A stretch of DNA of 64,000 nucleotides from Octopus sinensis. Lineage: Eukaryota. The notes under the pieces were generated by a model. That model was not told where the DNA came from and did not search any database. It saw nothing but the letters and a program-made list of their open reading frames with translations. The DNA lies in NCBI RefSeq assembly GCF_006345805.1, contig NC_043010.1, forward strand, positions 10,664,001 through 10,728,000, written 5' to 3'. Below, one piece after another: positions 3,371 to 63,227 of this stretch (its first letter is position 1; the number at the start of each line of letters is the position of its first letter). Position numbers and translations under genes: made by a program.

Positions 3371-5135
3371 AAGGCGGCGAGCCGGCAGAAATGTTAGCAC
3401 ACTGGGCGAAATGCTTAGCAGTATTTCATCTGTCTTTACGTTGCAAGTTCAAATTCCGCCAAGGTCAACTTTGCCTTTCATTCTTTCAGGGTCGATAACT
3501 TAAGTACCAGTTGCATAGTGCTGTTGATCTAATCGACTGGGCCCCTCCCCAAGCAATTTCGGGCCTTGTGCCTAGAGCAGAAAAAGAACATTTTCTTTTC
3601 TTAAGGCAGCGTGCTGGCAGAAATGTTAGCATGCTGGTCGAAATGCTTAGCAGTATTTCATCTGTCTTTACATTTTGAGTTCAAATTCCGCCAAGGTCAA
3701 CTTTGGCCTTTCATTCTTTCAGGGTCGATAAGTTAAGTACCAGTTGCATAGTGGTGTTGATCTAATCAAGGCGGCGAGCTGGCAGAAACGTTAGCATGCC
3801 GGGCGAAATGCGTAGCCATATTTCGTCTGCCGTTACGTTCTGAGTTCAAATTCCACCGAGGTCGACTTTGCCTTTCATCCTTTCGGGAGTCAATAAATTA
3901 AGTACCAGTTACGCACTGGGGTCAATATAATCGACTTAATCCGTTTGTCTGTCCTTGTTTGTCCTCTCTGTGTTTAGCCCCTTGTGGGTAGTAAAGAAAT
4001 AGGTGTTGATCTAATCGACTGGGCCCCTCCCCAAGCAATTTCAGGCCTTGTGCCTAGAGTAGAAAAAGAACATTTTCTTTTCTTAAGGCAGCGTGCTGGC
4101 AGAAATGTTAGCACACTGGGTGAAATGCTTAGCAGTAATTTCATCTGTCTTTACATTTTGAGTTCAAATTCCGCCAAGGTCAACTTTGCCTTTCATTCTT
4201 TCAGGGTCGATAAGTTAAGTACCAGTTGCATAGTAGTGTTGATCTAATCGACTGGGCCCCTCCCCAAGCAATTTCAGGCCTTGTGCCTAGAGTAGAAAAA
4301 GAACATTTTCTTATCTTAAAGCAGCGTGCTGGCAGAAATGTTAGCACACTGGGTGAAATGCTTAGCAGTAATTTCATCTGTCTTTACATTTTGAGTTCAA
4401 ATTCTGCTGCGGGCAACTTTGCCTTTCATCTTTTCAGGGTCGATTAAATAAGTACCAGTTATGCACTGGGTCGATATAACCGACTTAATCCGTTTGTCTG
4501 TCCCCTCTGTGTTTAGCCCCTTATGGATTGTAAAGAAATAGGTATTTTGTCTGTCTTTATGTTCTGAGTCCAAATTCCATTGCGGTCAACTTTGCCTTTC
4601 ATCCTTTCAGGGCCGATACCAGTTGCATAGTGGTGTCGATCTAATTGACTGGCCCACTCCCCAAGCAATTTTGGGTTTGTGCCTAGAGTATAGAAAAGAA
4701 CATTTTCTTTTCTTAACGCAGCAAACTGGCAGAAACGTTAGCATGCCAGGCGAAATGCTTAGCAGTATTAGGTTTGTCTTTAAGGGGCTAAACACAGAGG
4801 GGACAAACAACAACAGACAAAGCGATTGAGTCAATTACATCGACTCCCGAAAGGATGAAAGGCAAAGTCGACCTCGGCAGAATTTGAACTCAGAACGTAA
4901 CGACAGACGAAATACCGCTAAGCATTTCGCCCGGCGTGCTAACGATTCTGCCAGCTCACTGCCTTTCTGTCTTTAAGTTCTGAGTTCAAATTCCATTGCA
5001 GTCGACTTTGCCTTTCATCCTTTTGAGATAAAGAAAATAAATACCAGTTGCATACTGGGGTCGAAGTAACCAACTGCCCCTAATCCCCAAAATTCTAAAA
5101 TTTCAGGCCTTGTACCTTAAGCAGAAAAGAATATT
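3371..5135 (+). mobile_element. Cluster of SINE family B units: ~231-bp head-to-tail tandem copies, a nested copy at 3768-4001 and an inverted copy at ~4775-4965
   Basis: Repeated heads AAGGC(G/A)GCG..CTGGCAGAAA, B-box GAGTTCAAATTCC, central GCCTTTCATCCTTTCGGGGTCGATAAATTAAGTACC; 15-bp TSD GGTGTTGATCTAATC at 3753-3767 and 4002-4016. Confidence 0.85.
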
Positions 5136-6437: not shown

Positions 6438-6740
6438 GGGAGGCGCAATGGCCTAGTGGTTAGGGCAGCGAACTCGCGGTCGTAGGATCGCGGTTTCGAT
6501 TCCCAGACCGAGTGTTGTGTGTGTTTATTGAGCGAAAACACCTTAAAGCTCCACGAGGCTCCGGCAGGGGGTGGTGATCCCTGCTGTACTCTTTCACCAC
6601 TCTTTCTCTCACTCTTTCTTCTGTTGGCCTGCTCGCTTAGCCAGCGGGGTGGCGTCATTCGAAGGCTAAAACAATGCGAACGCATTGTGACCAGCGATGT
6701 GTAGCAACATCTGATGGTCTGGTCGGTCACGTGATCACAT
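6438..6740 (+). mobile_element. SINE group D, tail type 1 (tRNA-like head, RTE-like 3' end)
   Basis: A-box TGGCCTAGTGG and B-box GTTTCGATTCC; near-identical to 29140-29445. Confidence 0.85.
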
Positions 6741-11699: not shown

Positions 11700-11887
11700 G
11701 GAGGCACATGGCCTAGTGGTTAGAGCAGTGGATTCTCAATTGAGGGATTGTGGGTTCAAATCTCAGACTGGGCGATGCGTGTGTTTATGAGTGAAACACC
11801 TAAGCTCCATGCGGCTCTGGCAGAAGGTAATGGAGAACCTCTGCTGACTCTTTCACCACAACTTTCTCTCACTCTTTCCTCCTGCAT
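11700..11887 (+). mobile_element. SINE group D (type 3 head), 3'-truncated
   Basis: Matches 53801-53995. Confidence 0.75.
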
Positions 11888-11889
11888 CA

Positions 11890-12084
11890 ACGTGTGTACC
11901 ATTGGCGATTATTTTTCCTCTGTCTTCCCTTCTCTGAATCTTTCCTTCTCCTATGTTTCCGATGAAGAGCTCCGCTCGAAACGTTAAACCCTCCTTCTTT
12001 CCTTCTTTCCTGAGTGTCCAATAATACTTTATTTGTTCCACGTCTTCGCATTGTGTTTTTTGTGCTTTCTTGTTTGGATTAACT
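11890..12084 (+). mobile_element. Family E: ~190-bp non-coding element with a hammerhead-like motif (11955-11989), ending at (TA)n
   Basis: GTTT-CCGATGA-A-GAGC-TCC-GCTC-GAAACGTT-AAAC; four copies in the window. Confidence 0.7.
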
Positions 12085-12126
12085 ATATATATATATATAT
12101 ATATGTATGTATATATGTATATATAT

Positions 12127-16050: not shown

Positions 16051-16299
16051 GTGTGTGTATGCATGTGTGTGTGTTTGACGAACGGGAACATGAAACTCTG
16101 AGTAACAGTTTTTGTGAAGTCTTTGTAGCTTTATTAGCATTTTTACTCTGCCTCCAGGATTCAAGTACTATTTTTTCCACCTTGTTTTACATTTACATGC
16201 TTACTCTAGTATACATACATATATACATATACAGATATATATATATATATATGTGTGCGTGTGTGTGTATTTATAAATATACATATATATATGTGACCT

Positions 16300-16490
16300 C
16301 GTGTGTACCGTTGGCGATTTTTTTCCTCTGTATTCCCTTCTCAGGATCTTTCCTTCTCCTATGTTTCCGACGAAGAGCTCCGCTCGAAACGTTAAACCCT
16401 CCTTCTTCCCTTCTTTCCTGAGCGTCCAATAATACTTTATTTGTTCCACGTCCTCATGTTGTGTTTTTTTGTGTTTTCTTGTTTGGATTA

Positions 16491-16494
<4 letters not shown>
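16300..16494 (+). mobile_element. Family E copy, hammerhead-like motif at 16363-16397
   Basis: GTTTCCGACGAAGAGCTCCGCTCGAAACGTTAAAC; followed by (TA)n. Confidence 0.7.
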
Positions 16495-18210: not shown

Positions 18211-19440
18211 TCATCATCATCATCATCATCATCACCATCTTTTAATGCTCGCTTTCCATGCTGGCATGGGATGGACGGTTTGACTGGGGACTGGTGAGCC
18301 AGATGGCTGCACCATGCTCCAGTCTGATCTGGCAGAGTTTCTACAGCTGCATGACTTCTTAATGCCAACCATTCTGAGAGTGCAGTGGGTGCTTTTACGT
18401 GCCACCGGCATGAGGGCCAGTCAGGCAGTACTGGCAACAGCTACGCTCAAATGGTGTTTTTTACATTGCTACCAGCACAGGACCCAGTCCAGCAGCCCTG
18501 GCAATGACCTCGCTCAAATGTTGTTTTTCACGGGCCATCGGTCAGTACAAGTGCCAGTAAGGCTATGCTGGTAATGGTCATGCTTGAATGATGGTTTTTA
18601 CATGCCACCAGCATGGGAGCCAATTAGTGGCACTGGCAATGATCATGCTCGGATGGTACTCAAGGGTGGCAAGCTGGCAGAAACGTTAACGCACCGGATG
18701 AAACGCTTAGCGGTATTTCGTCTGTCGTTACGTTCTGAGTTCAAATTCCACCGAGGTCGACTTTGCCTTTCATTCTTTCGGGGTCGATAAATTAAGTACC
18801 AGTTACGCACTGGGGTCGATGTAATCGACTTAATCCGTTTTTCTGTCCTTGTTTGTCCCCTCTGTGTTTAGCCCCTTGTGGGTAGTAAAGAAATAGGTAC
18901 TCTTAGCGTTCCACTAGCACCGATGCTAGTCAGGTGGTACTGTTATCGGCCACATCAGCGAATTTGATTTCAATTTCATTTGCCTCAACACGTCTTCACA
19001 AGTAGAGTTTAGTGTCCAATGAAAGAAAGGTATGCATAAGTGGGCTGGTTACACCCCTGTCATAGGCCATGAGCTATGGTCTCACTTGGCTTGCCAGGTC
19101 TTTCCAAAGGTCTCGGTCACTAGTCATTGCCTTGGTGAGGCCTAATGTTTGAAGGTTGTGCTTCACCACCACATCCCAGGTCTTCCTGTGTCTACCTCTT
19201 CCACAGGTTCTCTCAACAGTTAGGGTGTGACACTTTTGCACACAGCTATTCTCATCCATTCTCACCACATGATTATACCAGTGCAGTTGTCTCTCTTGCA
19301 CACTACATCTGATGCTTCTTAGGTCCAACTTTTCTCTCAAGGCACTTACACTTGGTTGTGTATGCATACTGACATTACACATCCAGCGGAGCATACTGGC
19401 TTCATTCCTTGCAAGCTTACACATATCCTCAGCAGTCATG
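18211..19440 (-). mobile_element. 5'-truncated RTE LINE: ORF C-terminus (19074-19440) plus a 3' UTR with diverged ~60-bp repeats and a (GAT)n tail; parent of family C
   Basis: EASMLRWMCNV...LREKL...QERQLHWYNHVVRM...GRGRHRKTW...DRDLW is a typical RTE C-terminus; it continues into the family C tail. Confidence 0.8.
18662..18895 (+). mobile_element. SINE family B nested in the RTE 3' UTR
   Basis: Full B unit; GGTACTC duplicated at both ends. Confidence 0.85.
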
Positions 19441-24872: not shown

Positions 24873-25225
24873 TGCAGGAGTGGCTGTGTGGTAAGTAGCT
24901 TACTTACCAACCACATGGTTCTGGGTTCAGTCCCACTGCGTGGCATCTTGGGCAAGTGTCTTCTGCTATAGCCTCGGGCCGACCAAAGCCTTGTGAGTGG
25001 ATTTGGTAGACAGAAACTGAAAGAAGCCCATCATATATATGTATATATATGTATTTTTCCTCTGTCTTCCCTTCTTGGGATCTTTCCTTCTGCTATGTTT
25101 CCGACGAAGAGCTCCGCTCGAAATGTTAAACCCTCCTTCTTCCCTTCTTTCCTGAACGTCCAATAATACTATATTTGTTCCATGTCCTCGCGTTGTTGTG
25201 TTTTTTTGTGCTTTCTTGTTTGGAT

Positions 25226-25230
<5 letters not shown>
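24873..25230 (+). mobile_element. SINE A 5' half joined at its TA tract to a family E copy (25053-25230; motif at 25097-25131)
   Basis: Direct matches to both families. Confidence 0.75.
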
Positions 25231-29139: not shown

Positions 29140-29445
29140 TGGAGGCGCAATGGCCCAGTGGTTAGGGCAGCGGACTCGTGGTCGTAGGATCGTGGTTTTG
29201 ATTCCCAGACCGGGCGTTGTGAGTGTTTATTGAGCGAAAACACTTAAAGCTCCACGAAGCTCCGGCAGGGGGTGGTGATCCCTGCTGTACTCTTTCACCA
29301 CACTTTCTCCCACTCTTTCTTCTGTTGGCCTGCTCGCTTAGCCAGTGAGGTGGCGTCATTCGAAGGCTAAAAACAATGCGAACGCATTGTGACCAGCGAT
29401 GTGTAACAACATCTGATGGTCTGGTCGGTCACGTGATCACGTGAT
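29140..29445 (+). mobile_element. SINE group D, tail type 1
   Basis: Near-identical to 6438-6740. Confidence 0.85.
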
Positions 29446-38489: not shown

Positions 38490-38911
38490 CATTTCTTATT
38501 TCTTTATTGCCCACTAGGGGCTAAAAATAGAAGGGGCAAACAACGACAGACAAATGGATTAAGTCAATTATATCAACCCCAGTGCATAACTGGTACTTAA
38601 TTTATCAACCCTGAAAGGATGAAAGGCAAAGTCGACCTCGGCGGAATTTGAACTCACAACGTAACGGCAGATGAAATACCTATTTCTTTACTACCCACAA
38701 GGGGCTACACACAGAGAGGACAAACAAGGACAGACAAACGGATTAAGTCGATTATATCGACCCCAGTGCATAACTGGTACTTATTTAATCAACCCCAAAA
38801 GTATGAAAGGCAAAGTCGGTCTCGACGGAATTTGAACTCAGAACGTAAAGACAGATGAAATACCGCTAAGCATTTCACCGGCCGTGCTAATGTTTCTGCC
38901 AGCTCGCCGGC
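38490..38911 (-). mobile_element. SINE family B dimer (full unit plus 5'-clipped unit)
   Basis: Junction AAAGAAATA|GGTATTTC at ~38680; AACCAATTA repeated on both flanks. Confidence 0.8.
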
Positions 38912-39267: not shown

Positions 39268-39913
39268 CTTTTCTACTCTAAGCATAAGGCTTGAAATTTT
39301 TTGGAGGGGTGGGTGCCAGTCAATTAGATCGACCCCAGTACATAACTGGTACTTAATTTATCAACCCTGAAAGGATGAAAGGCAAAGTCAACCTTGGCGA
39401 AATTTGAACTCAGAACGTAGCAACAGACGAAATACCTATTTTTCACTACCCACAAGGGGCTAAACACAGAGAGGACAAACAAGGACAGACAAACGGATTA
39501 AGTCGATTACATCGACCCCAGTGTGTAACTGGTACTTATTTAAGGTGGCGAGCTGGCAGAAACGTTAGCACGCCGGGCGAAATGCGTAGCCGTATATCGT
39601 CTGCCATTATATTCTGAGTTCAAATTCTGTCGAGGTCGACTTTGCCTTTCATTCTTTCAGGGTCGATAAATTAAGTACCAGTTTCTCACTGGGGTCGATG
39701 TAATCGATTTAATCCGTTTGTCTGTCCTTGTTTGTCCCCTCTGTGTTTAGCCCCTTGTGGGTAGTAAAGAAATATGTACTTATTTAATCGACCCCGAAAG
39801 GATGAAAGGCAAAATCAACTTTGACGGAATTTGAACTCAGAACATAGCAACAGACGAAATACCGCTAAGCATTTTGCCTGGTGTGCTAACGATTCTGCCA
39901 GCTTTCTGCCTTT
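39268..39913 (-). mobile_element. SINE B dimer with a plus-strand B copy nested at 39542-39775
   Basis: TSD GTACTTATTTAA around the nested copy; same dimer junction at ~39435. Confidence 0.8.
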
Positions 39914-42920: not shown

Positions 42921-43305
42921 TAGGCGCAATGGCCCAGTGGTTAGGGCAGTGGACTCACGGTCATAGGATCACGGTTTCGATTCCCAGCCCGGGCGTTGTG
43001 AGTGTTTATTGAGCGAAAACACCTAAAGCTCCACGAGGCTCCGGCAGGGATGGTGGTGATCCCTGCTGTACTCTTTCACCACAACTTTCTCTCTCTTTTA
43101 CTTCCTGTTTCTGTTGTACCTGTATTTTTCAAAGGGCCGGCCTTGTCACTCTCTGTGTCATGCTGATTATCCCCGAGAACTACGTTAAGGGTACACGTGT
43201 CTGTGGAGTGCTCAGCCACTTACACGTTAATTTCACAAGCAGGCTGTTCTGTTGATTCGGATCAACCGGAACCCTCGTCGTCGTTACCGACGGAGTGCTT
43301 CCAAA
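42921..43305 (+). mobile_element. SINE group D, tail type 2
   Basis: Same head as 6438; tail matches 59064-59280 (minus). Confidence 0.85.
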
Positions 43306-46982: not shown

Positions 46983-49320
46983 GCCCCCGTGTTGGTGGCA
47001 CGTAAAAGCACCATCCGTTCGTGTCCGTTGCCAGCCTCGCCTGGCCCCCGTGCCGGTGACACATAAAAGCACCATCCGTTCGTGGCCGTTGCCAGCCTCA
47101 CCTGGCCCCCGTGCCGGTGACACGTAAAAGCACCATCCGTTCGTGGCCATTGCCAGCCTCACCTGGCCCCCGTGCCAGTGACACGTAAAAGCACCATCCG
47201 TTCGTGGCCATTGCAAGCCTCACCTGGCCCCGTGCCGGTGAACATAAAAGCACCATCGTTCGTGGCCATTGCCAGCCTCACCTGGCCCCGTGCCGGTGAC
47301 ACGTAAAAGCACCATCCGTCGTGGCCATTGCCAGCCTCACCTGGCCCCCGTGCCGGTGACACATAAAAGCACCATCCGTTCGTGGCCATTGCCAGCCTCA
47401 CCTGGCCCCCGTGCCAGTGACACATAAAAGCACCATCCGTTCGTGGCCATTGCCAGCCTCACCTGGCCCCCGTGCCGGTGACACATAAAAGCACCATCCG
47501 TTCGTGGCCGTTGCCAGCCTCACCTGGCCCCCGTGCCGGTGACACATAAAAGCACCATCCGTTCGTGGCCGTTGCCAGCCTCACCTGGCCCCCGTGCCAG
47601 TGACACATAAAAGCACCATCCGTTCGTGGCCATTGCCAGCCTCACCTGGCCCCCGTGCCGGTGACACATAAAAGCACCATCCGTTCGTGTCCGTTGCCAG
47701 CCTCACCTGGCCCCCGTGTTGGTGGCACGTAAAAGCACCATCCGTTCGTGGCCGTTGCCAGCCTCACCTGGCCCCCGTGCCAGTGACACATAAAAGCACC
47801 ATCCGTTCGTGGCCGTTGCCAGCCTCACCTGGCCCCCGTGTTGGTGGCACGTAAAAGCACCATCCGTTCGTGGCCGTTGCCAGCCTCACTGGCCCCCGTG
47901 CCAGTGAACACTAAAAGCACCATCGTTCGGTCCGTTGCCAGCCTCACCTGGCCCCCGTGCGGGGACACATAAAAGCACCATCCGTTCGTGGCGTTGCCAG
48001 CCTCACCTGGCCCCCGTGCCGGTGACACATAAAAGCACCATCCGTTCGTGGCCGTTGCCAGCCTCACCTGGCCCCCGTGCCGGTGACACATAAAAGCACC
48101 ATCCGTTCGTGGCCGTTGCCAGCCTCACCTGGCCCCCGTGCCGGTGACACGTAAAAGCACCATCCGTTCGTGGCCGTTGCCAGCCTCACCTGGCCCCCGT
48201 GTTGGTGGCACGTAAAAGCACCATCCGTTCGTGGCCATTGCCAGCCTCACCTGGCCCCCGTGTTGGTGGCACGTAAAAGCACCATCCGTTCGTGGCCGTT
48301 GCCAGCCTCACCTGGCCCCCGTGTTGGTGGACAGTAAAAGCACCATCCGTTCGTGTCCGTTGCCAGCCTCGCCTGGCCCCCGTGCCGGTGACACATAAAA
48401 GCACCATCCGTTCGTGGCCGTTGCCAGCCTCACCTGGCCCCCGTGTTGGTGGCACGTAAAAGCACCATCCGTTCGTGGCCGTTGCCAGCCTCACTGGCCC
48501 CCGTGTTGGTGGCACGTAAAAGCACCATCCGTTCGTGTCCGTTGCCAGCCTCACCTGGCCCCCGTGCCGGTGACACGTAAAAGCACCATCCGTTCGTGTC
48601 CGTTGCCAGCCTCGCCTGGCCCCCGTGCCGTGTGACACATAAAAGCACCATCCGTTCGTGGCCGTTGCCAGCCTCACCTGGCCCCGGTTGGTGGCACGTA
48701 AAAGCACCATCCGTTCGTGTCCATTGCCAGCCTCGCCTGGCCCCAGTGCCGGTGACACATATAAAAGCACCATCCGTTCGTGTCCGTTGCCAGCCTCACC
48801 TGGCCCCCGTGTTGGTGGCACGTAAAAAGCACCTCCGTTCGTGTCCGTTGCCAGCCTCTTCTGGCCCCCGTTGTGGTGGGACACGTAAAAGCACTATCCG
48901 TTCGTGTCCGTTGCCAGCCTCACCTGGCCCCCGTGCGGTGACACATAAAAGCACCATCCGTTCGTGTCCGTTGCCAGCCTCGCCTGGCCCCCGTGCCGGT
49001 GACACGTAAAGGCACCATCCGTTTCGTGGCCGTTTGCCAGCCCTGTCTGGCCCCCGTGCCGGTGACACGTAAAAACACCATCCGTTCGTGTCCGTTGCCA
49101 GCCTCACCTGGCCCCCGTGTTGGTGGCACGTAAAAGCACCATCCGTTCGTGGCCGTTGCCAGCCTCACCTGGCCCCCGTGTTGGTGGCACGTAAAAGCAC
49201 CATCCGTTCGTGTCCGTTGCCAGCCTCGCCTGGCCCCCATGCCGGTGACACGTAAAGGCACCATCCGTTTCGTGGCCGTTTGCCAGCTCTGTCTGGCACC
49301 TGTGCAGGTGGCACGTAAAA
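46983..49320 (+). repeat. GC-rich minisatellite, ~38 copies of a 61-bp unit, forming the 5' part of a family C retroelement
   Basis: Unit GCCCCCGTG(CC/TT)GGTG(A/G)CAC(A/G)TAAAAGCACCATCCGTTCGTG(G/T)CCGTTGCCAGCCTCACCTG. Confidence 0.95.
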
Positions 49321-49496
49321 AGCACCCACTACACTCACGGAGTGGTTGGCGTTAGGAAGGGCATCCAGCCATAGAAACACTGCCAGATCTGACTGGGCCT
49401 GATGAAGCCTTCCAGCTTCACAGACCCCAGTTGACCCGTCCAACCCATGCTAGCATGGAAAACGGACACTAAATGATGATGATGATGATGATGATG
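49321..49496 (+). mobile_element. Family C tail terminating the VNTR
   Basis: AGCACCCACTACACTC...GGAAGGGCATCCAGC...CCAACCCATGCTAGCATGG...(GAT)n. Confidence 0.85.
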
Positions 49497-53800: not shown

Positions 53801-54106
53801 CAGAGGCACATGGCCTAGTGGTTAGAGCAGCAGACTCGCGGTTGAGGGATCGCGGGTTCGAATCTCAGACCAGGCGGTCTGTGTGTGTTTATGAGTGAAA
53901 CACCTAAGCTCCATGCTGCTTCCAGCAGAAGGTAAAAGCGAACTTCTGCTGACTCTTTCGCCACAACTTTCTCTCACTCTTTCCTCCTGCATCTTGCAGC
54001 TCACCTGCAACGGACTGGCATCTCATCCAGGTGGGGAACCTATACGCCAAGGAAACTGGGAAACCGGCCCTTATGAGCCGGGCATGGCTTGAGAAGGAAC
54101 AAACAA
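53801..54106 (+). mobile_element. SINE group D, tail type 3
   Basis: tRNA-like head with GGTTCGAATC; (AAAC)n tail; TSD ACAGTGTGGG(G/A)TA. Confidence 0.85.
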
Positions 54107-54348: not shown

Positions 54349-54467
54349 GCTTACGGCCATAACACGTTTAAAGCACCGGTTCTCGTCCGATCACCGAAGT
54401 TAAGCAACATCGACCCTAGTTAGTACTTAGATGGTGACCGCTTGGGAAACCTAGGTACTGTAAGCAA
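54349..54467 (+). rRNA. 5S rRNA full-length copy (probable retropseudogene) with 3' trailer ATCCCG(T)7
   Basis: GCTTACGGCCATAAC...CCGGTTCTCGTCCGATCACCGAAGTTAAGC...TTAGTACTT.GATGG-TGACCGCTTGGGAA..CTAGGT.CTGTAAGC; GCTTAC/GTAAGC terminal stem. Confidence 0.9.
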
Positions 54468-54481
54468 TCCCGTTTTTTTGT

Positions 54482-54870
54482 AAGGCGGCGAGCTGGCAGA
54501 AACGTTAGCGCGCCGGGCGAAATGCTTAGCAGTATTTCGTCTGCCGCTACGTTCTGAGTTCAAATTCCGCCGAGGTTGACTTTGCCTTTCATCCTCTTGA
54601 GGTCGATAAATAAAGTACCAGTTTCTCACTGGGTCGATGTAATCGACTTAATCCCTTTGTGTGTCCTTGTTTGTCCCCTCTATGTTTAGCCCCTTGTGGG
54701 TAGTAAAAAAATAGATATTTCGTCTGTCTTTATGTTCTGAGTTCAAATTCTGCCGATGTCGACTTTGCCTTTCATCCTCTCGGGGTCGATAAATAAAGTA
54801 CCAGTTTAGCACTTTGTGTGTCCTTGTTTGTCCCCTCTATGTTTAGCCCCTTGTAGGTAGTAAAGAAATA
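54482..54870 (+). mobile_element. SINE B dimer fused downstream of the 5S copy
   Basis: Full unit 54482-54712 plus clipped unit 54713-54870; the whole 5S-SINE block is flanked by TGGATTGAATGCTGGGG (54333-54349, 54871-54887). Confidence 0.85.
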
Positions 54871-56160: not shown

Positions 56161-56194
56161 GATATATGCATATATATATATATATATATATATA

Positions 56195-56382
56195 GCTAAT
56201 CCAAACAAGAAAACACAAAAAAACGCAACAACGCGAGGACGTGGAACAAATATAGTATTATGGATGCTCAGGAAGGAAGGGAAGAAGGAGGGTTTAACGT
56301 TTTGAGCGGAGCTCTTCGTCGGAAACATAGAAGAAGGAAAGATCCCGACAAGGGAAGACAGAGGAAACAAAATCGCCAACGG
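56195..56382 (-). mobile_element. Family E copy (motif at 56292-56326) within (TA)n
   Basis: Reverse complement of 11890-12084; GAAA mutated to AAAA. Confidence 0.7.
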
Positions 56383-56407
56383 TATATATATATATATATA
56401 TGATATA

Positions 56408-58809: not shown

Positions 58810-59690
58810 AGACATGTCCCCCATGTATCTAGGAAACCAAGTTCCTCCAAACTGTGACAGACCATCACAGCTGATTCCATGCCACCCCACATCTTTGAGC
58901 AGGGGCCTCCATCCCAATTCAGACAGCAATGTAAAGCTGCAGGAGAATGTAGCCAAACCCTGGCAGGGATGGGTTGCTACTGAAAAGCCATATGTGTGGC
59001 AGCAGGATTTCAATCTTTGCCATACCTCTGAAAAGAGTCAGAAATTATTCTCAGAGAATCTCTGGATGGATGGAAGCACTCCGTTGGTTACAACGACGAG
59101 AGTTCCGGGTGATCCAATCAACGGAACAGCCTGCTCGTGAAATTAACGTGTAAGTGGCTGAGCACTCCACAGACACGTGTACCCTTAACGTAGTTCTCGG
59201 GGATATTCAGCGTGACACAGAGAGTGACAAGGCCGGCCCTTTGAAATACAGGTACAACAGAAACAGGAAGTTAGAGTGAGAGAAAGTTGTGGTGAAAGAG
59301 TACAGCAGGGATCACCACCATCCCCTGCCAGAGCCTCATGGAGCTTTAGGTGTTTTCGCTCAATAAATACTCACAACGCCCGGTCTGGGAATCGAAACCG
59401 CGATCCTACGACCGCGAGTCCGCTGCCCTAACCACTGGGCCATTGCGCCTCCACTAGAGAATCTCTATGACTTCAACAGCCCAATTTCTGGCCTCCTAAT
59501 TCACCTAACTGTAATCCCATGAATTACTATATGTGAGGTGCATTATAGAAAGACATCACCCACACTGCCTGCAACACCGAGGCCAAGCTAGTGACCAAAA
59601 TCAAGGGACACAGTGAAGAATGCACGTTCCAGGTTCCAGAACCATCTTGAGACAGTGATGGAAGTCGAGTGGAGTTACTTTGAGTAAACT
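58810..59690 (+). pseudogene. maT (DD37D) transposase remnant interrupted by a SINE D
   Basis: TKFLQTV..MPPHIFEQGL..KPW...PYVWQQD...FWPPNSPNCNPMNYY; 37-residue spacing after removing the insert and one frameshift. Confidence 0.75.
59064..59455 (-). mobile_element. SINE group D, tail type 2
   Basis: 11-bp TSD AGAGAATCTCT (59053-59063, 59456-59466). Confidence 0.85.
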
Positions 59691-62312: not shown

Positions 62313-62723
62313 ACTGTCAGCACATTTCCCTTATACTTAGAAGCTTTCTAATAGGATTCATCAACTTACATTGTTTCCACAACAGACACAACAGGACTTC
62401 ACACTCATTCAGAAAGTGGTTAGGAAGGGGTTACATTTATTTACCATAAAATATCTAAACTTACACAAGCAAGATATCATTCTCAAGAAGAATTTATTTC
62501 AGTGATATTAGATATCCTTATTAAATGAAATTTAGACAAAGTTGAAGATGCCAGGAAGATTTATGAATGAAGCACATGCCACATGGCTATCAGAATATGC
62601 TGTAGAATGTAAGCAAACTTTAGGTTAATTAAAATATGTTTGGGACATATTTTAACTTCTAATGGAAAATCACTTTATTAAGGAGACAAAATTCTCTCTT
62701 ACAGTAAAAGGTATAAGAATACC

Positions 62724-62955
62724 TATTTTTTTACTACCCACAAGGGGCTAAACACAGAGGGGACAAACAAGGACAGACATAGGTATTAAGTCGATTACAT
62801 CGACCCCAGTGTGTAACTGGTACTTCATTTATCGACCCCGAAAGGATGAAAGGCAAAGTCGACCTCGGCGGAATTTGAACTCACAATGTAACGCAGACAA
62901 AATACCGCTAAGCATTTCGCCCGGCGTGCTAATGTTTCTGCCAGCTCGCCGCCTT
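62724..62955 (-). mobile_element. SINE family B
   Basis: TSD TATAAGAATACC. Confidence 0.85.
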
Positions 62956-63227
62956 ATAAGAATACCGTAATTTCCCGGTCCCTCCACCGATTGGATTCCC
63001 AGAAGGCTGCTTGAATTAACCTAAAGTTTGTATTTCTTAATCACTGCTTGGCACTGGTGCTATTATGTTTACACCAGCTAAGCAGTCAAATAGCACAACA
63101 CAATTACTGATGTTGAATGTTTTTTATTAAAGTTTCTTATTTAACGATGGCGCAGAGTTATGTGGACACCTCTGAGGAGACCTCAATAAGGTTCGAAAAT
63201 CGATTAAGCTTGTTCAGCATTTTTATA

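Follow-up and report, generated by a model that had tools for sequence, protein, structure and literature searches.

A Penelope-like element pseudo-LTR in Octopus sinensis with a minimal hammerhead-like motif carrying C in place of U4

Minimal type I hammerhead motifs have been described in the pseudo-LTRs (pLTRs) of metazoan Penelope-like elements (PLEs) and occur mostly as scattered single copies of PLE origin (Cervera and De la Pena 2014, PMC4209133). The core variants in the supplement to that paper include U3-A8, and its text, with 56 representative motifs, contains CCGA twice, in neither case in a core. EN-bearing (EN+) PLEs of the Neptune and Nematis types have an RT, then a CX2-5CxxC linker and, at the C terminus, GIY-YIG with CCHH, together with DKG and pLTRs (Craig et al. 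2021, PMC8557442). In the Poseidon PLE PAc of Anolis, the pLTR hammerhead has a canonical core and cuts only with protein, and the ORF starts inside stem II; catalytic mutants still insert in vitro, uncut RNA is the main template, and no RNA ends were found at the position of the cut (Frangieh et al. 2024, PMC11167929). A natural viroid variant with C in place of U4 (U4C) is reportedly much slower in vitro and keeps its infectivity (Ambros and Flores 1998, as cited in Perreault et al. 2011, PMC3088659), and a natural A6C core keeps some activity with a shifted metal preference (PMC7151607). Non-LTR retrozymes are small, non-coding, pLTR-related units that contain a type I hammerhead (Cervera and de la Pena 2020, PMC7229834; bioRxiv 10.64898/2026.07.22.740005), and form tandem arrays that give highly paired circRNAs (PMC7229834).

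The sequence analysed here, hereafter the window, is a stretch of 64,000 nucleotides from the 2.72 Gb genome of Octopus sinensis (contig NC_043010.1, positions 10,664,001 to 10,728,000, forward strand). A 35-base motif was matched in it at 11955 (+), 16363 (+), 25097 (+) and 56292-56326 (-), the four places given in a preliminary description of this DNA, and had no match in 100 shuffles. The architecture was also as first described, with stem I GTTT/AAAC, stem II GAGC/GCTC, the loop TCC, an extra A after A9 and a loop-less ACGT palindrome; motif positions (C4, G12 etc.) are numbered after the hammerhead consensus. The first copy of the surrounding repeat (11891..12084, +) is slightly short at its 5' end, where a SINE-like repeat adjoins it upstream, and its sharp 3' end meets a (TA)n tract at 12084..12126 that is likely the target repeat. 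Its motif (11955..11989) has the core CCGAUGA, with C4 at 11960, a T7 due to CpG decay, and a predicted cut at 11985/11986. The second copy (16291..16493, +), of about 203 bp and with a TA tract on either side, is a typical full solo unit, and its motif (16363..16397; predicted cut 16393/16394) has the core CCGACGA, the commonest sequence of the family. The third (25054..25230, +; motif 25097-25131) is truncated at the 5' end, while the fourth (56194..56384, -) holds its motif at 56292-56326. Two copies had been said to carry point changes in GAAAC; these are C15.2T at 25124 in the third copy and G12A at 56303 in the fourth, where a catalytic G is lost, and both are CpG transitions.

All four copies align over about 190 bp and share an end point, followed by (TA)n. 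That length had been taken as the size of the element; the complete unit is longer, as the 203 bp or so of 16291-16493 and a set of genomic copies indicate. An upstream landmark was kept in 35 of 52 motif-selected copies, and 29 of these 35 begin 7-22 nt above it, at about 73-88 nt above C3, with two reaching further; the remaining 17 of the 52 are either shorter or members of subfamilies whose upstream sequence is a different one. One subfamily with an identical hammerhead (L106, L107, L113, L114, L119, L120 and L060) has a different upstream sequence that holds a 6-bp hairpin. When the first 100 of 6,859 genome matches to a pattern allowing CpG decay were scored by eye, nine other CpG positions of the motif were found altered in 2-10 copies each, and the decayed positions in genome copies included the catalytic G5, G8 and G12. 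The two GAAAC changes are thus decay after insertion, and genomic copies therefore decay neutrally once inserted.

The link from these short copies to a parent element came from a locus at which two repeats stand with 250 bp of other sequence between them. A search with this spacer, which is a piece of the 5' end of an ORF, gave 257 candidates, and the repeat adjoined it in all 20 loci fetched. One full-length element, L071, measures 5.57 kb and reads pLTR-ORF-3' UTR-pLTR; its ORF, though broken by stops and frameshifts, has DKG, RT motifs with YIDD, a CX4CX2C linker and a GIY-YIG with CCHH. The family-E repeat, as the window repeat is called here, lies on both sides of the ORF in L071 and in L073. 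An intact frame at another locus, L086, has PLE-type RT motifs, the CX4CX2C linker and, at the C terminus, GIY-YIG. Pfam matches of the ORF to RVT_1 and GIY-YIG were weak, below the curated cut-offs. Homologues numbered 711 among 7,989 candidates scored, some of them named from molluscs, a coral and an echinoderm, and there were at least 97 ORF matches among 94 candidates scored. The features of L071 are those given for Neptune/Nematis-type PLEs (PMC8557442), in the same RT-linker-GIY-YIG order and with CCHH and DKG, so that the repeat can be identified as a pLTR, and its four copies in the window as solo pLTRs. Partial tandems and microsatellite targeting are also common to both; the 3' UTR of L071 is long (about 1.9 kb) and CA-rich. 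The parent is, as assigned from its ORF features, an autonomous EN+ PLE of the Neptune/Nematis type, the two taken together. The suggestion that the repeat is a PLE terminal repeat was therefore borne out, and longer copies joined to an RT and GIY-YIG ORF, for which a search had been proposed, were found.

Many short derivatives, made of a pLTR, the first 200-480 bp of the body and a second pLTR, were seen among the 257 candidates (L031-L050); their breakpoints differ, and they are possibly template-switch products. No PLE body, ORF or sister pLTR was found in the 64-kb window. Other window matches to L071 (L071 positions 4321-4569) were considered as PLE parts and rejected, as they represent a different abundant repeat inserted in the L071 3' UTR. 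An abundant repeat of about 235 bp that is also inserted in that 3' UTR lies in the window at 3768-4001, 18665-18895, 38497-38909, 39541-39778, 54481-54718, 62711-62958 and further places. The SINE-like repeat, which is presumably tRNA-derived, has six window copies (6440-6621, 11701-11888, 29142-29322, 42929-43107, 53803-53993 and 59264-59451), the second of which adjoins the first pLTR copy, and no tRNA gene was found in it by ARAGORN. The window also contains a full-length 5S rRNA match at 54349-54466 (+; 92.3 bits), either a gene or a 5S-derived repeat, and a GC-rich 61-bp tandem array at 46983-49326 (38.5 copies, 91% matches).

The motif agrees with the published consensus of minimal type I PLE hammerheads (PMC4209133) in every feature except U4, and the earlier claim of such a hammerhead is upheld by this match and by one covarying stem I pair. 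Stem I, stem II, the extra base after A9, G10.1-C11.1, the palindromic loop-less stem III and UH are all present, whereas the core CUGANGA is not, with C4 in four of four window copies. The type I order, the 4-bp stem I, the U-rich 5' flank and the occurrence as mostly scattered single copies of PLE origin are likewise shared with the motifs in PMC4209133; C at position 4 and a short stem II (4 bp) set the present one apart. Predicted pairing in the monomer was weak (stem I 0.12-0.27), and the predicted cofold of the dimer, an extended duplex and not the active fold, is uninformative.

In the genome as a whole, U4 was found in 798 of 4,422 exact family motifs, for the most part from an older subfamily, C4 being the majority, and in 18 of the 47 rows with a three-base loop among the first 100 matches listed for a looser pattern. 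At position 4, T had a depth-weighted share of 14-28%, a crude measure, in contigs from public runs (four runs, four organisms). Six other diagnostic columns define an older subfamily, in which 21 of 22 copies have U4, and a younger one, in which 83 of 90 have C4, in a sample of 115 family copies enriched on purpose for U4. The mean pairwise distance is 0.097 in the older subfamily and 0.053 in the younger (0.067 in a less biased subset). A tree of 47 of 127 copies, built with position 4 masked, placed the younger C4 copies together with a related lineage, B/C, apart from the old U4 copies and a canonical outgroup, lineage F, with support of 98/97; the diagnostic columns went into the old/young split, which makes that split partly circular, and the branch to the outgroup is a long one. 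Lineage B/C has 1,120 exact motifs, with C4 in 99 of the first 100, and its copies are 99.5% identical over the ORF; in the closer group, two of ten loci (L086 and L087) have open frames of 1,008 amino acids. The full-length units of this youngest C4 lineage (L086-L095) are about 6.2 kb.

That U4C is mere decay was rejected, because CpG decay turns C into T and the inherited majority state is C4. The converse, that U4 copies are mere CpG decay, was rejected for most of them, because U4 travels with the six other diagnostic columns; T4 was found in 18 of 100 copies, versus 2-10 of 100 at the nine other motif CpG positions (by eye). From the younger/older split, the masked tree and the near-identical B/C copies, U4C is on these comparisons derived, having arisen after the older U4 subfamily, in a lineage that transposed until recently. 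The proposal that C4 is a family trait thus held insofar as the base is inherited and present in all four window copies; it is not invariant, being a trait of the younger subfamilies only. Many PLE hammerhead variants, which could already contain these, were reportedly collected by Lunse et al. in 2017. No description of a PLE hammerhead with U4C was found in the literature, the alignments of Lunse et al. 2017 and the supplements of bioRxiv 10.64898/2026.07.22.740005 lying outside the scope of that search.

Related lineages were found by a protein search, B/C with 84% and D with 64% amino-acid identity. In the B/C motif the C4 core is unchanged, the triplet is GUC and stem I contains a U.U mismatch; lineage D has a CUGUNGA core (A6U), a four-base loop II and a reversed outer stem I pair; and the older lineage F has the canonical core CUGAAGA. 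A general motif pattern gave 27,117 matches, and the first 100, read by eye, were 53 CUGUNGA, 29 CCGACGA and 18 CUGANGA. Between lineages, every base occurs at N7 and U, A or C at H17, loop II is variable, and G5, G8 and G12 are fixed. Across 14 chosen representatives, 98.4% of cells pair, which is above 500 of 500 shuffles. One stem I pair changes on both sides (a compensatory G-C/C-G swap), a covariation that is one event counted in many rows; stem II never covaries among the same 14 and, being invariant, is uninformative, so that the covariation looked for in both stems was found in stem I only. Between C4 lineages, 2 of 35 motif positions differ, versus 19-22% in the flanks (p 0.02-0.04), in pairs that are not independent and with low-complexity flanks that may mutate faster and inflate the contrast. 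A stem I pair was broken after U4C in lineage B/C (U.U in 2 of 14 rows); decay would account for this as well as tuning would. The variation at N7, H17 and loop II, the one stem I covariation and A6U in a sister lineage together argue that the fold is constrained. The positions that vary are those that a hammerhead leaves free, and at the level of sequence the constraint is hammerhead-like.

Lineage D (L096-L104 and L137-L165) has A6U fixed and N7 variable, with many long open frames and near-identical copies. On the minus strand of L097, near 2041, there is a minimal hammerhead with a canonical core that belongs to an unrelated family. A further conserved segment, TTCCTGAGCG followed by an AAT-rich stretch, lies at 12000-12030 of the window, about 20 nt below the cut, and is kept across lineages (B/C, D and F) whose likeness is only about 70%. 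Pairing with the 3' strand of stem II or with an upstream CUCNGGA is possible, and the segment could instead be a promoter or 3'-end signal. Inspection by eye also showed a candidate distal helix, CUCNGGA with UCCUGAG, in lineages E and B/C.

If cleaved RNA served as the template, the ends of copies should gather at the predicted cut. A 5' junction within about 10 nt of this cut is found in only 61 copies; 14 of these are cut-compatible (by eye), 20 begin three bases downstream of the cut, and the 61 junctions show no pile-up of 5' ends at the cut itself. Among 100 listed of 156 matches, no copy ended at the cut into (TA)n. These copy ends suggest that the RNA giving rise to insertions is unbroken at the motif, having been left uncut or been re-ligated, in agreement with the Anolis PLE (PMC11167929). 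The two elements also share a hammerhead in the pLTR and an AT-rich target, and they differ in that here the start of the ORF is well downstream of the pLTR and the TA junction is where copies end.

Taken together, the repeat is the pLTR of an EN-bearing PLE, whose solo copies lie in TA repeats, and we consider it probable that the inherited U4C slows a predicted, dimer-dependent self-cleavage while the fold is kept. The ribozyme would thus be slowed but retained, and a slowing of the predicted self-cutting is likely. The core change is the same as in the viroid (PMC3088659), where it occurs as a rare variant; in the present case a retroelement lineage of several thousand copies has it fixed, and in a loop-less motif of the dimer type. 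The RT of the element would prime on nicked (TA)n at the U/A-rich end of the pLTR, copy through the intact ribozyme and usually stop about 80 nt above it, probably at the transcript start. Cleavage would be rare or late, taking place as a dimer and perhaps with the help of protein. With cleavage rare or late, a slow core would cost little and may even preserve the template.

The alternative that fares best is that U4C killed cleavage, leaving a relic kept as a structure or sequence for the protein or promoter of the element, which transposes without cutting. We judge this unlikely. The lack of a DNA footprint at the cut site agrees with it, as do the further departures of the youngest lineages (the stem I mismatch of B/C and A6U of lineage D) and the in vitro insertion of Anolis PLE catalytic mutants (PMC11167929). 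However, H17 stays within A, C and U, B/C went to GUC, N7 is free and G5, G8 and G12 are fixed, a pattern specific to catalysis, and natural cores with U4C (PMC3088659) and A6C (PMC7151607) keep some activity.

More improbable still is a non-autonomous retrozyme, in which transcripts of tandem pLTR-(TA)n units would be cut by hammerheads acting in pairs, closed into circles and inserted again by the PLE protein. Solo copies do far outnumber ORF-bearing ones: the motif has 12,808 genome matches within two mismatches (none for the reversed control), against the at least 97 ORF matches. The 5' boundary varies little, head-to-tail dimers stand at two of 29 distinct loci, and animal retrozymes have been proposed to derive from pLTRs (bioRxiv 10.64898/2026.07.22.740005). 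Most copies are nevertheless single, and no tandem or multimeric arrays were seen among the 29 loci. The unit of about 200 bp is predicted to fold no better than shuffles (z = +1.15), unlike the highly self-paired retrozymes described (PMC7229834); the copies lie scattered, have a weak predicted fold and are identical to the ends of autonomous elements, and in the tree the solo copies intermingle with the pLTRs of the full-length elements L071 and L105. The separate non-autonomous or retrozyme-like family first suggested was accordingly given up. That a sequence within a repeat should look like a hammerhead by chance has next to no probability. In favour of this could be put only the lack of a hammerhead family in the 150 best of 282 Rfam matches of the window (a scan uninformative for loop-less motifs), and the idea is largely refuted by the parent PLE link, with the motif placed in the pLTR exactly as described for PLEs, by the consensus match except at U4, by the stem I covariation and by the fully canonical core of older relatives.

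The type of element is ordinary and U4C is already known as a natural variant, and the role of hammerheads in PLE pLTRs is open (PMC8557442, PMC11167929). What the slowed but retained ribozyme favoured here adds is a C4 lineage that kept transposing, to near-identical recent copies, after the change of a nearly invariant core base. The older subfamily, with the same flanks and the canonical base, offers a natural comparison for whether cutting matters, and strict hammerhead descriptors undercount such motifs. More tentatively, and with considerable doubt, U4C in one lineage and A6U in its sister may have been fixed independently within the U-turn segment, with all other catalytic letters kept and both lineages thereafter dominant and recently active. 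If this is true, it would point to selection for a throttled or protein-switched ribozyme. Searches based on CUGANGA would then miss most PLE ribozymes in such genomes, as 82 of the first 100 listed are non-canonical, and the U4 and C4 subfamilies would form a natural pair in which to test what PLE hammerheads do.
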